A stretch of 42,865 bases of DNA from a virus (lineage: Duplodnaviria > Caudoviricetes): positions 1 to 42,865 of the IMG/VR virus record IMGVR_UViG_3300031605_000006. One strand, 5' to 3'. Shown here piece by piece: positions 1,626 to 8,707 of the stretch. The translations under genes and the position numbers were made by a program. A model generated the notes under the pieces. It did no database searches, was not told the origin of the DNA, and saw only the letters and a program-made list of their open reading frames with translations. Every line of letters begins with the position of its first letter. Position 1 is the first letter of the stretch.

Positions 1626-1855
1626 TAGAATACCTCCTTCTCGGTTTGGACCATTTGCTTCGTCTTCTCACAACGGCAAGTTGCCTTGTCCTTGCAATAT
1701 CTCCGTATTGCTATTGACCCAGACATCTCCATGTCGGCATAGACCGTATCTTTCAGTTCCTTTATTACCCTTGGGTTTTTATCCCCAAGCTCCTTCAGGT
1801 CTTTCCGAATCTCTTTAGCGAGCTTCTGATCATCTATAAAGTTGCGTATCCACAT
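1625..1855 (-). CDS. Hypothetical protein
   Basis: Preceded by AAGAAAGGAACTAAA; stop overlaps the next start. Confidence 0.7.
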   Translation of the reverse strand: MWIRNFIDDQKLAKEIRKDLKELGDKNPRVIKELKDTVYADMEMSGSIAIRRYCKDKATCRCEKTKQMVQTEKEVF

Positions 1856-1881
1856 TTTAGTTCCTTTCTTTGGTTAAAACT

Positions 1882-2197: not shown

Positions 2198-2467
2198 ATG
2201 AGTGATACCAAGCAAACCATGTCCTTCCGCATTAGCTCGCCCCTCATCGCTATGCTCAAGGATGCCGCACACCGTAACAACGTCACGGTCTCCTCCTACA
2301 TCGAGGCAGCTATCAAGCAACAAATCGGGAGCATCGTGGATCAAGTCAAAGACTCAGAACGCAAACCAACCATCCTCAAGTTCCAAGGTGGCTCAATCAC
2401 CCTGCCGCACACCATCAAAGTCCCCCACACCGGACTCCTTATCCTCGACCCCCAGCTGGGCAAGTAA
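2198..2467 (+). CDS. Ribbon-helix-helix protein, candidate prophage repressor
   Basis: KQTMSFRISSPLIAMLKDAAHRNNVTVSSYIEAAI is a typical RHH pattern; divergent from 1882-2082. Confidence 0.7.
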   Translation: MSDTKQTMSFRISSPLIAMLKDAAHRNNVTVSSYIEAAIKQQIGSIVDQVKDSERKPTILKFQGGSITLPHTIKVPHTGLLILDPQLGK

Positions 2468-2629
2468 ACATTGCCGCACCACCTCCTCCACACTCCAACC
2501 CAGGTGGAAGGCATAGTCATCCACTATTTCCGCAAGCCCCTCATCCATCTTTAGCCGCACCTCCCGCATGAACCGCACAGCATAAAACATCCACTCCTGC
2601 ATGTACCCCAAAAAATAAAACCACTTCAT
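2393..2629 (-). CDS. Third RHH-like protein (start probably at MREVRL)
   Basis: MREVRLKMDEGLAEIVDDYAFHLGWSVEEVVRQCL; its 3' end overlaps 2198-2467 in antisense. Confidence 0.45.
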   Translation of the reverse strand: MKWFYFLGYMQEWMFYAVRFMREVRLKMDEGLAEIVDDYAFHLGWSVEEVVRQCLLAQLGVEDKESGVGDFDGVRQGD

Positions 2630-2642
2630 CTCTTGAAATGAC

Positions 2643-2672
2643 TTGACGGGGCCAAAAAGAGGTCATTAAAAT
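2643..2672 (+). promoter_or_regulatory. Sigma70-like promoter with no ORF downstream
   Basis: TTGACG (2643-2648), 18-bp spacer, TAAAAT (2667-2672). Confidence 0.5.
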
Positions 2673-2758
2673 TGCGGCATCGCCGCACACTAATTAGTCT
2701 AATTAGACCCAATAAGCCGCCCCGGTCCCTCCGGGAAGGAGGGGCGGCAATCGAGTGG

Positions 2759-2806
2759 CACTCAATACCACTCAATACCACTTAATATACTTAATATACT
2801 TAATAT
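2759..2806. repeat. AT-rich tandem repeats
   Basis: CACTCAATAC twice, CACTTAATAT once, ACTTAATAT twice. Confidence 0.85.
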
Positions 2807-2844
2807 GCAGTTTACCCAATTAACCACCTAATCTGCATGAATCC

Positions 2845-2873
2845 TTGACCTTATGCCGTTTCTACGCTAGTTT
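2845..2873 (+). promoter_or_regulatory. Promoter of the candidate antisense sRNA
   Basis: TTGACC (2845-2850), 17-bp spacer, TAGTTT (2868-2873). Confidence 0.6.
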
Positions 2874-2880
2874 TAATCCC

Positions 2881-2962
2881 AGCGTGAGAGTTTCCATGAT
2901 CACGCTTTAGTTCCTGCCCATCCCCTTCTGGTTAGTTCCCTTTAGGGGGTGGGCATCTTTCT
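2881..2962 (+). ncRNA. Candidate trans-acting antisense sRNA with two hairpins
   Basis: Stem 2881-2887/2900-2906 and 12-bp stem 2915-2926/2944-2955 followed by TCTTTCT; unpaired GTTTCCATG and TTTAGTTCCT are reverse complements of early-gene start regions. Confidence 0.65.
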
Positions 2963-3148
2963 GCCCTAATCCCCTAAAACCTCCTCACATCGCATCCTCA
3001 TGTCCCTGCGGCACACCGTAGGTATGTGGCGAGGTGTGGGGGGACCGTTAGTTGCAAAATTTCACGGGGGGTTGGATCGATAACAATATCCAACCCCAAG
3101 GCAAAAGCTCGACCCCCCCCGCCCCCCCTCAGACCGACTGCCAATGAA

Positions 3149-3598
3149 TCACCCAGTTTCTGCGGGTTCCGGTAGCAATTGGGGGCTGTGTGGGGCTGCG
3201 GTAGTCGGGAGGGTAGTCGGGAGGTCTATTGCGCTGGCTAGTTGCTCGCGGAGGGCCGCAGTGTCGCTGCGGACATGCTCAACTCGTGAGGTTGCGCGAC
3301 CACTCAGCAAAAGGCGTTTATCAAGAGAGACTGCTGAGACAACCGAAAGGTCTCTTGGTTTTACGTCACCGTCAATAATCTGACCCTCAAGCTTTTCCAA
3401 TGCGAGCGCACTGATTCGCCCCAACTTAATTGCTAGCTCTCGGTCCTCATCAAAACCATCGCGGACCATCTCGTCGCGGACGCTCAATATCATTGAATCC
3501 CCGCAGCCGGTCAGCGAGGCAATTGACTTCCAAGGAATATGCTCACTTAACAAATCCCGCACTTTTTGACGTTTAACAGTATCCTTTGCCCTTGGCAT
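3149..3598 (-). CDS. Terminase small subunit-like HTH protein (start MPRAK at 3598)
   Basis: N-terminal HTH (KSIASLTGCG), helical middle and a DKRLLLSGRATSRVE tail typical of phage TerS-like proteins. Confidence 0.55.
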   Translation of the reverse strand: MPRAKDTVKRQKVRDLLSEHIPWKSIASLTGCGDSMILSVRDEMVRDGFDEDRELAIKLGRISALALEKLEGQIIDGDVKPRDLSVVSAVSLDKRLLLSGRATSRVEHVRSDTAALREQLASAIDLPTTLPTTAAPHSPQLLPEPAETG

Positions 3599-3613
3599 GA
3601 TTTGATTCTTAAA

Positions 3614-3661
3614 CCACAATATCTAGTGGTTGCCCACCAGGCGTCCTACCACATCTTGTGG
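3614..3661. promoter_or_regulatory. Tandem NrdR-box-like palindromes
   Basis: CCACAATATCTAGTGG (3614-3629) and CTACCACATCTTGTGG (3646-3661), 32 bp start to start; NrdR consensus is acaCwAtATaTwGtgt. Confidence 0.65.
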
Positions 3662-3743
3662 ATTGAACGCTTGGCATGTTTGCCCTTGCGAACCTTGCCA
3701 ACTGGTAACACAAAAAAAAAGACAGTTTTAGACAATTAAACGC

Positions 3744-3772
3744 TTGCTATCGTATTACGCTCACGCAATATT
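3744..3772 (+). promoter_or_regulatory. Early operon promoter with operator
   Basis: TTGCTA (3744-3749), 17-bp spacer, AATATT (3767-3772); spacer holds GTATTACG (3752-3759), as in the 2090-2118 promoter. Confidence 0.6.
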
Positions 3773-3818
3773 CGCCCCGTTGGCCGTCTACTGGTCAATT
3801 CAATAGGAACTAATAAAC

Positions 3819-4166
3819 ATGGAAACCAAAACATTAAACGTTGGAACCAACCGGGGCAAACGCCGCGTGTGGGTTGAAGGTAAAGCACTTGAGCGCCTCG
3901 GATGGGTCAAGGGCGTAACATACACGCGCAAAGAGTTGCTGCTTCAAAGCGGGTTCACTCTTACGCGGGATAATGGCGGTAGCTTAAAGGTTGCCGGGGG
4001 TGAAGGTCGCCCAGTGTTAGACCTCTGCGGGAATTACGTTGCCGCAGCCCTTGAGGGGTTTGAAAAGGTGACGGTCACAATCACCACGAACAAGATCACC
4101 ATAACCGGCAAAGCTGCGGCACTGTTGCTCCCGGTATTGCTCAAGGCATTGGAGGTGGCAGCGTGA
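3819..4166 (+). CDS. Early hypothetical protein, possibly AbrB/SymE-like beta fold
   Basis: AGGAAC RBS; RVWVEGKALERLGW motif. Confidence 0.7.
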   Translation: METKTLNVGTNRGKRRVWVEGKALERLGWVKGVTYTRKELLLQSGFTLTRDNGGSLKVAGGEGRPVLDLCGNYVAAALEGFEKVTVTITTNKITITGKAAALLLPVLLKALEVAA

Positions 4167-4507
4167 ACACGTTCAACCCCGCAACCTACAAATACACGCC
4201 GCAGCTAATCCCCAAAAGGTCTCTCTCCGGGGAGTCTCATTATATTGGGGTGCATTGGGACCAATCAAGCCACGTTTACCGGGGCGAGTTAATAGGAACG
4301 CGGCGCAACGACTACGGGCAGTCTTTTGGGACAGTCTTGGCAAGGGGCGAAGGTTCGACCCCTCAAAAAGCGGCAAGCCGAACCATTGGCGACCTTGACA
4401 GGCAAGCGAGGCAAGCGGCGTTTGACAGAACAGACGCAAAAAAAGCAAAGGAACTAGTCGCGAGTGAGTACGTTCTCACATTGAAAAGAGCGGGGGGGAA
4501 AGCATGA
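4163..4507 (+). CDS. Early hypothetical protein
   Basis: GGAGG RBS; GTGA overlap with the upstream stop. Confidence 0.7.
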   Translation: MNTFNPATYKYTPQLIPKRSLSGESHYIGVHWDQSSHVYRGELIGTRRNDYGQSFGTVLARGEGSTPQKAASRTIGDLDRQARQAAFDRTDAKKAKELVASEYVLTLKRAGGKA

Positions 4508-4698
4508 GCTACCGCATTGTCCGCAGTTACCAAGACCCAAACAAGCGAAGCCGCACGATTGAAGCAAGGGTGACGCTTGAAGAGGCAAGGGCGCACTGTA
4601 GTGACCCAGAAACAAGCTCCCGCACTTGCACCAAACCGTATCCGCAAAGCTTGACCAAAAAGCACGGTCCTTGGTTTGACGGTTACGATGAAAACTGA
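4504..4698 (+). CDS. Small early phage protein
   Basis: ATGA coupling; TLEEARAHCSDPETSS...PWFDGY. Confidence 0.7.
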   Translation: MSYRIVRSYQDPNKRSRTIEARVTLEEARAHCSDPETSSRTCTKPYPQSLTKKHGPWFDGYDEN

Positions 4699-4701
4699 GC
4701 T

Positions 4702-5190
4702 ATGAAAACACAAAACAACATCAGCAAAAGGGAAGCAAGCAAGCGACACAAAACGCGGCACTTGGACGCTTTGGCTTTGCTTTGGCATTGTCACGTTGAA
4801 TGGGGCAAACCGCCCGGCTGGGTTGCGGAGTTCAAGCCAACCGTGACCAAGGGAAGCCCCGCAGCAATGGAGGCAATAGGCGATTGGTTACACCGCAAAC
4901 TTGGATTGCTTGAGCGTAGGGCACACAGGGCGGCAACCAACCTTTGCAACGTCCCAGACTACCAAGCCAAGTGCGACCGGATACTTGAAAAGGTAGCGGG
5001 GGAAGTACGGACCCTTTTCGGGGGCAACCTCCCCGCAGGGTTCATAATCAACCGTGACCCCCGTGGCTACGCCTTAAAGCTTGAGGCGGGACCACTGCGG
5101 AGGCATGCGGCGTCCTCAAGGTCCTCGCTTAACAACCTCCACCGTGATTGGGGCGGAGATTTCATTCTTGCACCTTCAAACTTTAATTGA
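4702..5190 (+). CDS. Early hypothetical protein
   Basis: Operon spacing; INRDPRGYALKL...HRDWGG motif. Confidence 0.75.
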   Translation: MKTQNNISKREASKRHKTRHLDALALLWHCHVEWGKPPGWVAEFKPTVTKGSPAAMEAIGDWLHRKLGLLERRAHRAATNLCNVPDYQAKCDRILEKVAGEVRTLFGGNLPAGFIINRDPRGYALKLEAGPLRRHAASSRSSLNNLHRDWGGDFILAPSNFN

Positions 5191-5192
5191 AC

Positions 5193-5297
5193 ATGAAAAG
5201 AGATTCAATTGGTTGGCTTTTGGACCTTGCAACCTTGCTTGGCATTGTTGCCCTGCTCTTTTGGGGCGAGTGGCTTTTGCCCCTATTGCTGCCGTGA
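5193..5297 (+). CDS. 34-aa single-pass membrane peptide (not in the ORF track)
   Basis: MKRDSIGWLLDLATLLGIVALLFWGEWLLPLLLP; starts 2 nt after the upstream stop. Confidence 0.55.
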   Translation: MKRDSIGWLLDLATLLGIVALLFWGEWLLPLLLP

Positions 5298-5413
5298 CCA
5301 CTCAGCAGGAATTCACCTTGACCTTGCCAAAGCCGCGCAAGGTCCGGGCAACAGAGCGCGAAGCGCAAGTATGGTTTGCGCTACTCAAGCGCAAGCTGCA
5401 GGGGGGCAAATAG
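5294..5413 (+). CDS. 39-aa basic peptide
   Basis: GTGA coupling to the previous ORF; ends within a terminator hairpin. Confidence 0.45.
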   Translation: MTTQQEFTLTLPKPRKVRATEREAQVWFALLKRKLQGGK

Positions 5414-5424
5414 CCCCCCTTTTT
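5401..5424 (+). terminator. Intrinsic terminator inside the early region
   Basis: GGGGGGC-AAATA-GCCCCCC followed by T5. Confidence 0.7.
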
Positions 5425-5484
5425 CCCTTTCCCTTTTCAAGCTTTAAAAGGGGACAGGGGCAAAGGAACCCCCAAATAAACATC

Positions 5485-5643
5485 ATGGAAAAACCTAAAA
5501 AAAGAGAATGCGCCTGTTGTGGTTCAACAGTAAAGGAACCCTACACCGGGACCATCAGCGCGGAAGGCGTCCTTCTTTATTGTGACGAATGCGCCAACGC
5601 GATGCCATACACTTTCGGAGAACCTACCCACGAACCCAGATAA
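5485..5643 (+). CDS. Small zinc-finger protein
   Basis: MEKPKKRECACCG...YCDECAN (two CxxC motifs). Confidence 0.6.
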   Translation: MEKPKKRECACCGSTVKEPYTGTISAEGVLLYCDECANAMPYTFGEPTHEPR

Positions 5644-5821
5644 TAAACTCACCTGGCCATTGTTCAAGGGCAGAGAGTGTTTCCCTTGAATTGGCCAAAA
5701 ACAACGAATTTGCCAAAAAGCGCAAAAAACATGCCCCACACTTTCGCTCTACGGGACTTTTGAAAAGTCAGAGGGTAGAGAGTGCGGGGATATTAACCAA
5801 AAAAAAGAAAGGAACTAAAAC

Positions 5822-6250
5822 ATGGAAACGCAGAGAGTCAGAGAGTCAGAGACGCAGAGAGTCAGAGAGTTCAAGCGTGGATACATTACCGCAGCATTAT
5901 GGTCATCAGTTGACCCAGAGGAAACGCCGCTTGATGACCCAGAGAAATACGGTGAGGAAAAGCTTGCCGCAGAGACCGTGCAAAAGATGGAAAGCGATTG
6001 CGACAAGTTCATTCAACTGAATGACGATGACCTCAGAGAGTACGCCGAGAAACGGGCAATCCCAATCGGGGCAGAGTACACCGCAGACGAATGCGCGGGG
6101 CACGATTTCTGGTTAACCCGTGCCGGTCACGGTACTGGCTTTTGGGATCGGGGACTTGGGGAACTTGGGGAACGTCTGAGCAAGGCAAGCGCAAGTTTTG
6201 GCGAGTGCTGGCTTTATGTCGGCGACAACGGAAACCTTTACACTGAGTAG
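5822..6250 (+). CDS. Acidic early phage protein
   Basis: AGGAACTAAA RBS; GYITAALWSS...GHDFWLTRAGHGTGFWDRG. Confidence 0.8.
   Translation: METQRVRESETQRVREFKRGYITAALWSSVDPEETPLDDPEKYGEEKLAAETVQKMESDCDKFIQLNDDDLREYAEKRAIPIGAEYTADECAGHDFWLTRAGHGTGFWDRGLGELGERLSKASASFGECWLYVGDNGNLYTE
5831..5870 (+). repeat. Five tandem 8-bp units, consensus CAGAGAGT
   Basis: Read directly; lies within a CDS. Confidence 0.9.
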
Positions 6251-6259
6251 GAACTAAAC

Positions 6260-6553
6260 ATGAAAATTGAAACAATAAAAGACCTGAAAAAGGCACTACG
6301 AGATTATCCGGGCGGACACGCTTGGCCCGGTGGTTACCAATGTTACTTTGTAACCGATGCCGGTGAGGCACTGAGCTTTGAAACGGTGAGAGCTGAATTG
6401 AAGTTAATCATGGGGGCAGTCAGAGACCATGACCACAGTGGTTGGCAAGTGATAGGGTTGGATGTAAACTATGAAGACCCCTCACTCTTTTGCGCTCACA
6501 GTAATGAGCGCATCCCCTCGGCATACGCAGAGGATGAAAGGGACCCCAGGTGA
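6260..6553 (+). CDS. Early hypothetical protein
   Basis: AGGAACTAAA RBS; AWPGGY...VNYED...CAHSNERIPSAY. Confidence 0.8.
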   Translation: MKIETIKDLKKALRDYPGGHAWPGGYQCYFVTDAGEALSFETVRAELKLIMGAVRDHDHSGWQVIGLDVNYEDPSLFCAHSNERIPSAYAEDERDPR

Positions 6554-7707
6554 AGTCCCTAGGTAAAAAGTTGTACCGTAAAAACGGCAATTATAACGGG
6601 CGCGTAAAGTTGCCCTCTGGGAGTTGGACTTTCCGGGCAATAAAAAACCGGGACGGGTCAGAGATCACCTCAGAGACCGCAGCCAGAGACCGTTTAATTA
6701 TTCTCCAAGCAGAGATCAATTCAGGGGAAGTCAGAGAGTCAGAGACTCAGAGAGACTCAGAGAATCAGAGAGTTGATCCAATCCTTGCTGGTTACGCTTC
6801 AGCAGGATTTCCGACGAAGCGATACCAGAGAGTCAGAGAGTCGGTTGACCTGCGGACCTCCTTTGATCACTTGCAGAGGTTCTTTGGGGGACTCATCCCA
6901 GAGAACATTGGACTCCCAGAGTGTGATGATTATGTGGTGTACCGGAAACGGGTTGCCGCAGAGAATGGCAGAGGGACAGGTGAGAGGGTTGCGGAGATTG
7001 ACCTTCAGAACATGTCATCAGCGTTCAACTGGGCAGTTCGCAAGCGTAAGCTGAGAAAGAACCCTATCAGAGAGAGGGAACGCTACCAAGACCCAGCCAC
7101 AGTGGTCCATTGCACGGCCCACATGCCAATGACCTCAGAGGCACTGCATGACATTGCGGCTGAACTCTCCCCGGTCCTGCGGCATCAATGTCTCCTTGAA
7201 GCGTTCACGGGAGGGCGCACAGGCGAGATTTTGAAGCTCAAAGCTGAACCGGAGATAAACACACCGGGATTCTACAATGAGGATTACCTGTGGATAGACA
7301 GGTCGAAGGGCGGCATCAACCCGTTTGTAGTGATGCACGAACCCTTGAAGCGTCTGCTGAGTCATGCCAAAGCGTATCGAGACCAGCACCATCCCCATTC
7401 AGCGTACCTGTTGCCGGGGAAAGATGGGATTAGCTCAGTCCACGGTGACTCATTGACTCAAGCACTGAGGGGAGCTTGCAAGCGAGCAGGACACCCCAAG
7501 GTCATCTCACATGGTTTGAGGGCATTTTATGTTCGGTGTCTGCGGTCCAAGGGACTGAGTGACACTGAGATTGCAATTCGATTGGGACACCGCAGTGGAG
7601 TGCGGCTTATTGAATCAACCTACGGGTTGGCGGAACCCAAGTGGATAGGAGAAAACAAACTGGATTTTATGCCAAAGGATGTCCCCGCGGCATGGGAAAG
7701 GAACTAA
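6550..7707 (+). CDS. int: Tyrosine recombinase (phage integrase)
   Basis: Catalytic R (GGRTGE), HGLR, LGH and TY motifs; attP nearby. Confidence 0.9.
   Translation: MKSLGKKLYRKNGNYNGRVKLPSGSWTFRAIKNRDGSEITSETAARDRLIILQAEINSGEVRESETQRDSENQRVDPILAGYASAGFPTKRYQRVRESVDLRTSFDHLQRFFGGLIPENIGLPECDDYVVYRKRVAAENGRGTGERVAEIDLQNMSSAFNWAVRKRKLRKNPIRERERYQDPATVVHCTAHMPMTSEALHDIAAELSPVLRHQCLLEAFTGGRTGEILKLKAEPEINTPGFYNEDYLWIDRSKGGINPFVVMHEPLKRLLSHAKAYRDQHHPHSAYLLPGKDGISSVHGDSLTQALRGACKRAGHPKVISHGLRAFYVRCLRSKGLSDTEIAIRLGHRSGVRLIESTYGLAEPKWIGENKLDFMPKDVPAAWERN
6732..6773 (+). repeat. Five tandem CAGAGA units inside the integrase gene
   Basis: cagagagt cagagact cagagagact cagagaat cagagagt. Confidence 0.85.
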
Positions 7708-7708
7708 A

Positions 7709-8062
7709 ATGAAAACAATAATAACAATAGCGACGATTGGAATACTCGCGATGGTCTCAGACCCTCCCAAGAGGACGCTGACGGCATCATGGTATGGTGA
7801 ACGGTACAACGGTAGGAAAACGGCTTCAGGGCAGGTTTTTGATGCCGCAAAGCATACGGCAGCAAGCTGGGACTATCCGCTGGGGACGAAACTCCGCATC
7901 TGGAATGGACCCCGGTTTGTAGTTGTAACGGTTAACGACCGGGGACCGGCGAAGAGGTTACTGAAGACCAGACAACTTGATTTGTCTTGGGCAGCTTTCT
8001 CGCGCCTAGCTGATCCAGACGCAGGACTCCTGCACAATCTGAAGGTGGAGGTGATGAAATGA
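7709..8062 (+). CDS. RlpA-like lytic transglycosylase (double-psi beta-barrel) with an N-terminal hydrophobic segment
   Basis: ASWYG...GRKTASG..FD....TAA...P.GT...VTVNDRGP...LDLSWAAF; ATG at 7709 follows AGGAACTAAA. Confidence 0.85.
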   Translation: MKTIITIATIGILAMVSDPPKRTLTASWYGERYNGRKTASGQVFDAAKHTAASWDYPLGTKLRIWNGPRFVVVTVNDRGPAKRLLKTRQLDLSWAAFSRLADPDAGLLHNLKVEVMK

Positions 8063-8421
8063 GCAAAAAAATAGCAGATTGGCAGAAGATTGCTGCCCGG
8101 AAGAACATTGATGGGTTCGTTGGCAAAGCAGGGAGGTGGACCCTCTGCATTAACGATGTTAATGATGCGTCATTCGGGCATGCCGGTGACAGTGTTTACA
8201 AGGACGGTCGCGTCCTGACCTTCCATGACTCTGAGATTGTCAGGGAGCAGTGGCCGATTGGCCAACAGGTGAGTGGTTACTACATCCGGACCCTACTTGA
8301 GGACAGGGAGCAACTGGAAGAGGGAGGACTCAACCTTGAGGGTGGAGTTGAAGCTTGGAGTGCTACCCCAAGTGAAATGAAAAAGGTGTTCAAGTTGATA
8401 GACAAGGAGTCTCCTTCCTGA
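8059..8421 (+). CDS. Hypothetical protein
   Basis: GGAGG RBS; ATGA coupling. Confidence 0.75.
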   Translation: MSKKIADWQKIAARKNIDGFVGKAGRWTLCINDVNDASFGHAGDSVYKDGRVLTFHDSEIVREQWPIGQQVSGYYIRTLLEDREQLEEGGLNLEGGVEAWSATPSEMKKVFKLIDKESPS

Positions 8422-8470: not shown

Positions 8471-8707
8471 TCGTCTACCAACTCGTCTACTCGCCCGATT
8501 TGGTAAGGTGTCAGTAAGGTGTCGATTGGCTGAAAGTAACTGTAGCCATTGGGGGAAAGATGGCGGGAGTGACGAGACTTGAACTCGCAACCTCCTGCGT
8601 GACAGGTACTCAGTGAGTGAGAGCAGTCAATGTTTATAGGGCCAAAACCAATTCAAGTATTACCCAAAGTAGACGAATACGTCTACAACTCGTCTACTCC
8701 CGTCTAC
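8471..8707. repeat. Integrase arm-type site candidates (CGTCTAC) flanking the attP core
   Basis: Copies at 8471, 8483, 8669 (inverted), 8679, 8690 and 8700; GTAAGGTGTC twice at 8503-8523. Confidence 0.7.
8561..8606 (-). other. attP core: 3' half of tRNA-Asp(GTC)
   Basis: Minus strand reads CCTGTCACGCAGGAGGTTGCGAGTTCAAGTCTCGTCACTCCCGCCA: anticodon loop, T-arm and CCA, with no 5' half. Confidence 0.88.

Follow-up and report, generated by a model that had tools for sequence, protein, structure and literature searches.

The element at positions 2845–2962, judged by sequence comparison, is a real, conserved and clade-restricted RNA element, for which a role as a multi-target antisense regulator is credible. 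A small RNA read from the plus strand probably pairs through a single-stranded linker with a sequence tag, which would mask the ribosome-binding sites (RBS) of five genes and additionally cover the AUG at two of them. The DNA analysed here, referred to as the window, is a complete virus record of 42,865 bases. A first-pass annotation had described the element and proposed that one trans-encoded RNA silences the translation of dispersed early genes; the observation is confirmed, and the interpretation is partly supported.

Profile searches of the window identify an SU10-type capsid protein, a terminase, a primase-helicase and a tyrosine integrase (6550–7707, plus strand), the last implying that the phage is temperate. 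A rightward block of small genes (3819–8421) opposes one long leftward arm. The element sits in a 681-nt gap between a plus-strand gene for an Arc/CopG-like (ribbon-helix-helix) repressor (2198–2467; PHROG 3180, E = 1.6e-5) and a leftward gene (3598–3149), which has 47 homologues and which we take to resemble a small terminase. A near-palindromic CGTA(A/T)TA(C/T) box, a candidate operator for the Arc-like protein, is located upstream of the Arc-like gene (2104–2134) and in the promoter-like region before gene 3819 (3751–3759), where it is kept in all five relatives that cover the site. Just past the terminator of the rightward block, a tRNA-like stretch on the minus strand (8556–8606) is likely the attachment core; by resemblance it is presumably the 3´ half of tRNA-Asp(GTC), and Rfam gives no tRNA match for it. 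A comparable tRNA-like piece lies 3´ of the integrase in the more distant record G006. Clusters of an 8-nt repeat (CAGAGAGT-like) occur at 5831–5871 in gene 5822 and at 6732–6774 and 6826–6842 in the integrase gene; they differ among strains and are possible integrase arm sites or slippage tracts.

As first reported, the tag AGGAACTAA stands just before the ATG of five genes, starting at 3805, 5810, 6249 and 7699 on the plus strand and at 1865 on the minus strand. Both strands of the 42,865 bases contain six copies, compared with 0.34 expected from base composition. Five of the six precede starts, and the sixth is the element itself in minus-strand orientation. In a blind scan for 9-mers with GG or GAG and at least three start-proximal copies, the tag motif ranks first, its only other copy being in the element. 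The first target (3805–3826, plus strand, including the AUG context) belongs to the first rightward early gene (3819–4166), and the second (5810–5829, plus strand, likewise with the AUG context) to gene 5822–6250 (PHROG 1915), which has the best predicted binding (−13.0 kcal/mol). The third (6249–6262, plus strand) precedes gene 6260–6553; the fourth (7699–7711, plus strand) precedes a gene with an RlpA/DPBB domain (7709–8062) and overlaps the integrase stop codon; and the fifth (1853–1865, minus strand) precedes gene 1855–1625, the head of the leftward arm. The targets had been described as dispersed early genes: the five starts are dispersed, but the one at 1855 on the minus strand heads the leftward arm and lies beyond the rightward early operon. 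Among relatives, the tag also stands before other leftward genes. A second motif, CATGGAAAC, spans the ATG of genes 3819 and 5822, as had been noted, and has three copies in total (3818, 5821 and the element). The partial matches pointed out at 5485, 6260 and 7709 are real but weak. Degenerate tags, AAAGGAACCCC and AAAGGGACCCC, precede gene 5485 and the integrase (5464–5487 and 6536–6552). The tag shares AAAGGA with the canonical SD, AAAGGAGG (PMC10783764, Table 1), and its ACUAA is unexplained by 16S pairing.

Comparison of the five target genes with Pfam, PHROGs and NCBIfam yields no match to an antirepressor family, and three of the genes have no functional name. In the ESM Atlas, the sole lead for gene 3819 is a weak one to SymE (score 0.85, 13% of members), and gene 5822 has no named family. 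By eye, the first early gene apparently contains two AbrB/SymE-like repeats (3819–4166 in the window, 4639–4956 in L145). If its product were toxic, there would be a reason for tight translational silencing. In three relatives (L143, L145 and L146), the promoter and tag are the same but the first early gene that follows them is another one than 3819, so the window is a mosaic drawn from two lineages; in L145 this other gene encodes 384 aa and is followed by a glutamine-amidotransferase-like gene.

The coordinates and letters first given for the parts of the element are all correct. A promoter-like site, TTGACC-17-TAGTTT (2845–2873, plus strand; hexamers at 2845–2850 and 2868–2873 around a 17-nt spacer), has a predicted start near 2880. 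Downstream on the same strand follow hairpin 1 (2881–2906), whose loop GTTTCCATG (2890–2898) forms seed 1, the complement of CAUGGAAAC; a single-stranded linker TTTAGTTCCT (2906–2915), which forms seed 2, the complement of AGGAACUAAA; a terminator-like hairpin 2 (2915–2955), which in the window carries a 15-nt loop insertion with TTAGTTCC at 2932–2939; and a U-rich tail (2956–2962), which is conserved in the alignment. The two-hairpin unit has a minimum free energy of −36.6 kcal/mol (z = −4.7), and equal stability is reached in 0 of 200 shuffles. The U-rich tail is present and conserved, but TCTTTCT is a weak U-tract. A terminator scan calls the terminator in L145 and leaves it uncalled in the window, because the 15-nt insertion exceeds the loop limit of the scan. 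Rfam returns no match at gathering score across the whole window, C4 families included, and a single chance match to a microRNA family at E up to 10 in 2460–3830.

The unit had also been described as free of ORFs. No ORF of at least 45 aa crosses 2782–2997, but an 11-codon ORF runs on the minus strand from 2897. Since the minus strand has the tag together with an ATG, the element might be the start region of a leader peptide (METLT...). This frame has 9, 11, 21, 22 or 44 codons among relatives and is unconserved beyond the hairpin, which makes a leader peptide highly improbable.

The promoter assignment holds in part: the spacing is kept in relatives, but the site in the window has only 8 of 12 consensus matches and is not called by a promoter scan, which does call it in L146 (10/12) and L145 (9/12). 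A TTGA hexamer, a 17-nt spacer and a NANNNT hexamer are located 35–37 nt before hairpin 1 in 10/10 records, while the spacer sequence is unconserved and differs among lineages. All four one-sided stem changes produce G-U pairs on the plus strand and would be A-C mismatches on the minus strand. In its short form, hairpin 2 has a C(UUCG)G cap, and in 9/9 records the plus strand gives the better fold of the two. Together, the G-U pairs, the UUCG loop, the folding energies, the promoter-like spacing and the U-tail point to an element that is read on the plus strand. The same features weigh against an alternative in which the tag is the site of a phage or host RNA-binding protein, of which RegA and CsrA are examples, and the element is a minus-strand decoy that mimics a start region with the AUG in its loop. 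Read on the minus strand, the element does present the complete tag and CATGGAAAC, it could lie on read-through RNA from gene 3598–3149, and the unit just upstream (2643–2840) folds better on the minus strand in 10/10 records. For the SAS motifs of mycobacteriophages, binding of RNA or protein is left open in the accessible text of PMC3203893. However, the features listed above favour the plus strand, and the 24 window proteins scanned include no candidate RNA-binding protein; we consider a decoy unlikely.

Another promoter-like site, which is stronger and also conserved, is located 209 nt upstream and could turn the element into the 3´ end of a longer RNA. The stretch 2643–2840 contains a promoter-like TTGACG-18-TAAAAT, kept in 10/10 records, and repeated CTAATTAG/CTTAATAT boxes, followed by a GC-rich hairpin (2717–2748) whose inner stem varies among relatives. 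Most relatives have one more hairpin in this stretch, which is absent from the window. This stretch might encode either a second RNA or the element's precursor, or else serve as a replication origin.

The binding check that the first-pass annotation had called for was run by cofold, in which the five tagged starts rank 1–5 of 44 hand-listed starts. Their energies are modest (−13.0 to −9.3 kcal/mol, with the next start at −8.9): the fifth target is 0.4 better than the sixth-ranked start, and the integrase start is seventh. The linker is predicted to pair at all five tagged starts over 9–10 bp with hairpin 2 intact, and for 1855 and 5822 additional pairing is predicted between the tail (2956–2962) and an AAAGA that lies upstream of the tag. 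Simultaneous pairing to SD and AUG, as first proposed, is predicted at 3819 and 5822, but these are just two of the five targets, and hairpin 1 must open for it. When the seeds are shuffled and the stems kept, 0 of 300 controls bind as well as the observed mean, which is reached by 17 of 200 dinucleotide shuffles of the whole element. Seed 1 alone is unspecific, as the starts of the capsid gene and of gene 29539 give −13.5 versus −13.2 for the start of 3819. Plain duplexfold with the whole RNA, which ignores the RNA's own structure, put untagged genes first and was set aside in favour of cofold. In sequence and fold prediction, the element shows one hallmark of a trans-encoded sRNA, namely a conserved seed that is single-stranded and complementary to the start regions of the targets; its promoter-like and terminator-like signals are conserved by position and weak in the window, and the mini-ORF is unconserved.

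Relatives were gathered by primase, pattern and handle searches. The element is found in nine further contigs (L138, L140, L143, L144, L145, L146, L151, L152 and L162), which together with the window give six distinct element sequences; L138 and L151 are identical in the element, L157 duplicates L140, and L148 is the genome of the window itself. Of the 20 pattern loci, ten (L139, L141, L142, L147, L149, L150 and L153–L156) have neither a blastn match to the window nor a model match and were rejected. Among the matches listed, a loose pattern scan of viral contigs gave no blastn match to the circularised early region, and contigs from four DNA runs contained variants close to the promoter and no seed/target pairs that could be compared; the integrase query found no relatives. 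Sequencing runs with the element region are labeled mostly as seawater or marine metagenomes, and the prokaryote genomes searched contain no relative of the terminase-small-subunit-like gene and no hairpin-2 pattern.

In the seven-row alignment, the seed 1 loop is invariant (7/7 rows). Stem 1 contains one two-sided change, from G-C to A-U in two of the seven rows, and stem cells are paired in 99.2% of cases, compared with 37–60% in slid controls. All 77 cells of the hairpin 2 helix are paired, with U-G variants on the plus strand. A stem shuffle test reaches the observed level in 29 of 500 shuffles, and the covariation of the stems alone is therefore weak. Loop 2 had been regarded as a repeat of the seed. 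Its UUAGUUCC (2932–2939) belongs to the 15-nt insertion found in three of the six distinct sequences (window, L146 and L152), and a UUCG tetraloop replaces the insertion in the other three, so loop 2 lacks support as a required second seed.

The more distant records examined lack this arrangement. The element model has no match in 28 more distant records (TerL 42–91% identical; 11 of the records at least 90% complete), and a shared start 9-mer with GG or GAG is found in 0/18 of the more distant records scanned. G006, which is syntenic and has the integrase and the early block, contains neither the element nor a shared leader 9-mer. By these sequence searches, the element system is confined to one clade among the records examined. 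In another more distant phage (L171, 1–290), hairpins lie downstream of an Arc-like gene and one loop holds AAGGAACCCC; the contig ends there.

Covariation between seed and target was assessed in the six records that cover the element as well as the first early gene, which belongs to two unrelated families in this set. The leader of the first early gene keeps CATGGAAAC in 6/6 and AGGAACTAA in 5/6 records; in L146 the tag is degenerate, with two mismatches to the linker. Linkers that end in UCCUG, UCCUUG and UCCUUUG face leaders with one, two and four A before GGAAC, and the cognate linker-leader pairing is matched by just 4 of 720 permutations. The covariation asked for is thus visible as a linker U-run that tracks the leader A-run, but the whole-molecule cofold shows no cognate preference (162/720 permutations). 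These six pairs are suggestive only, because the records are related and the signal comes from about two independent changes.

This result also bears on a simpler explanation, in which the tag is a strong RBS spread by recombination or gene swapping and the element is a relic of an inverted leader, serving only as a terminator for transcripts of the Arc-like region. The SD-like AAAGGA, the different genes that relatives swap behind the same leader, the terminator-like hairpin 2 and the lack of significant covariation in the whole molecule are all in line with it. A terminator, however, needs no hairpin 1, no invariant loop and no conserved promoter-like site 35–37 nt upstream; moreover, the seeds are kept although the sequence around them diverges, and the U-run of the linker changes with the A-run of the leader. 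A relic leader is rather unlikely in view of these features.

In the antisense mechanism that we favour, an RNA of ~82 nt would be transcribed from the plus strand (about 2880–2962). Base pairing of its free linker with the AGGAACUAA tag, which overlaps the RBS in each of the five dispersed genes, would block their translation together; at 3819 and 5822, hairpin 1 would open and its loop would also cover the AUG. An sRNA duplex over the SD and AUG blocks 30S binding, and the duplex here is predicted to extend over the SD-like core and, at two targets, over the AUG as well. This coverage, together with a tag that is private to few phage genes, speaks against a different outcome, in which pairing with the tags stimulates or fine-tunes expression, for example by protecting the mRNA, or in which the RNA mainly targets host mRNAs with similar leaders. 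Such an outcome has a precedent in SviR, which acts on mRNAs of its own element via processing instead of simple repression (10.1101/2022.04.08.487710, accessible text), and is very unlikely here.

Acting after transcription, the antisense RNA would provide a second lock against leaky expression of early and leftward-arm genes, both in the prophage and upon superinfection, and it would be outrun once early mRNA is in excess. We infer this role because the integrase and the Arc-like repressor adjoin. We lean moderately towards a function in lysogeny and superinfection immunity, on account of the integrase, the tRNA-like attachment stretch, the sigma-70-like promoter and the adjacent Arc-like gene, over late shut-off, which is suggested by the parallel with mycobacteriophage Adephagia described below. 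The stop of gene 6260 overlaps the integrase start (GTGA at 6550–6553), and it is on this overlap only that control of the integrase via gene 6260, as first proposed, may be based.

The tag can be compared with the SAS, which is described in cluster K mycobacteriophages (PMC3203893, PMC11373665) and Microbacterium cluster EF phages (PMC7302621). According to the accessible parts of these papers, both are extended RBS-like motifs that precede non-structural genes, show conservation exceeding what 16S pairing explains and have a lone reverse copy; the tag of the window shares the SAS layout, being asymmetric and placed a few bases before starts. Four K1 phages have one reverse SAS copy away from any start, for which the function is left open (PMC3203893), and the role of the SAS was still called unknown in 2024 (PMC11373665). 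The SAS is unexplained since 2011, and the accessible text of the three papers assigns no mechanism to it (PMC3203893, PMC11373665, PMC7302621). In contrast to the SAS, to which it has no sequence relation, the tag has 9 nt and occurs at five genes, versus 13 bp at 11–19 in the portions of those papers available; its mirror copy is split into linker and loop seeds and has its own promoter-like and terminator-like signals. The tag differs from the cluster K consensus, and upstream 17-bp inverted repeats (ESAS) are absent before the targets among the 25 longest of 52 inverted pairs. In the right-hand parts of Anaya and Adephagia, the reverse SAS copy is intergenic and forms the tip of a long hairpin in fold prediction (L281:31871 and L282:18683), downstream of a second strong predicted hairpin; the right-hand parts of TM4 and Pixie, the other two of the four phages checked, have no reverse copy within two mismatches. 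In Adephagia, genes 92 and 93 flank the copy, and late transcription seems to start in this gap (PMC11373665). For the K1 reverse-copy hairpin, folding energy does not separate the strands. These hairpin checks are evidence on mycobacteriophages, separate from the phage of the window.

Small RNAs of other phages differ in origin and action: c4 is processed from a precursor, sar RNA is cis-encoded, and P4 CI RNA is a trans-acting small RNA that causes premature termination in the leader of its own operon. Like c4 of P1 and P7, which binds around an RBS through loop complementarity, blocks translation and is tied to immunity, the element has loops complementary to start regions; unlike c4, which controls the ant mRNA (PMC12197685, accessible text), it has five dispersed predicted targets on both arms, with no antirepressor identified. 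The P22 immI region (Arc, Mnt, sar) likewise places an Arc-like repressor gene beside an antisense RNA that blocks translation initiation (PMC2629481, PMC12197685, in the parts available). The sar RNA has a single target, the ant mRNA, whereas the element lies 0.9–4.8 kb from its targets and has 9–10 nt of complementarity per seed, which sets it apart from cis-antisense RNAs of the sar type. In the accessible text of these sources, c4 and sar each act on one operon (PMC12197685, PMC2629481). By this analogy the element would work like P1 c4 and P22 sar, yet it is a member of neither class. With P4 CI and PLE SviR it would share action in trans on transcripts of its own element. SviR has several targets, lowering translation of helper-phage targets and affecting the processing of its own mRNAs, and a shared start tag is absent from the accessible part of its description (10.1101/2022.04.08.487710). 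We found no report of a multi-target self-silencing phage RNA in the literature covered, which is mostly outside the subscription journals.

A more general reading, to which we give slightly less than even chances, is that of a phage regulon without a protein regulator, built from a private RBS tag and one mirror RNA with two seeds that clamp SD and AUG, in which captured genes would join by landing behind the tag; the same principle would explain the cluster K SAS. If this is true, it provides coordinated translational control over scattered, often-swapped genes and a compact programmable repressor module, and the element offers a direct and cheap test of the role of the SAS.
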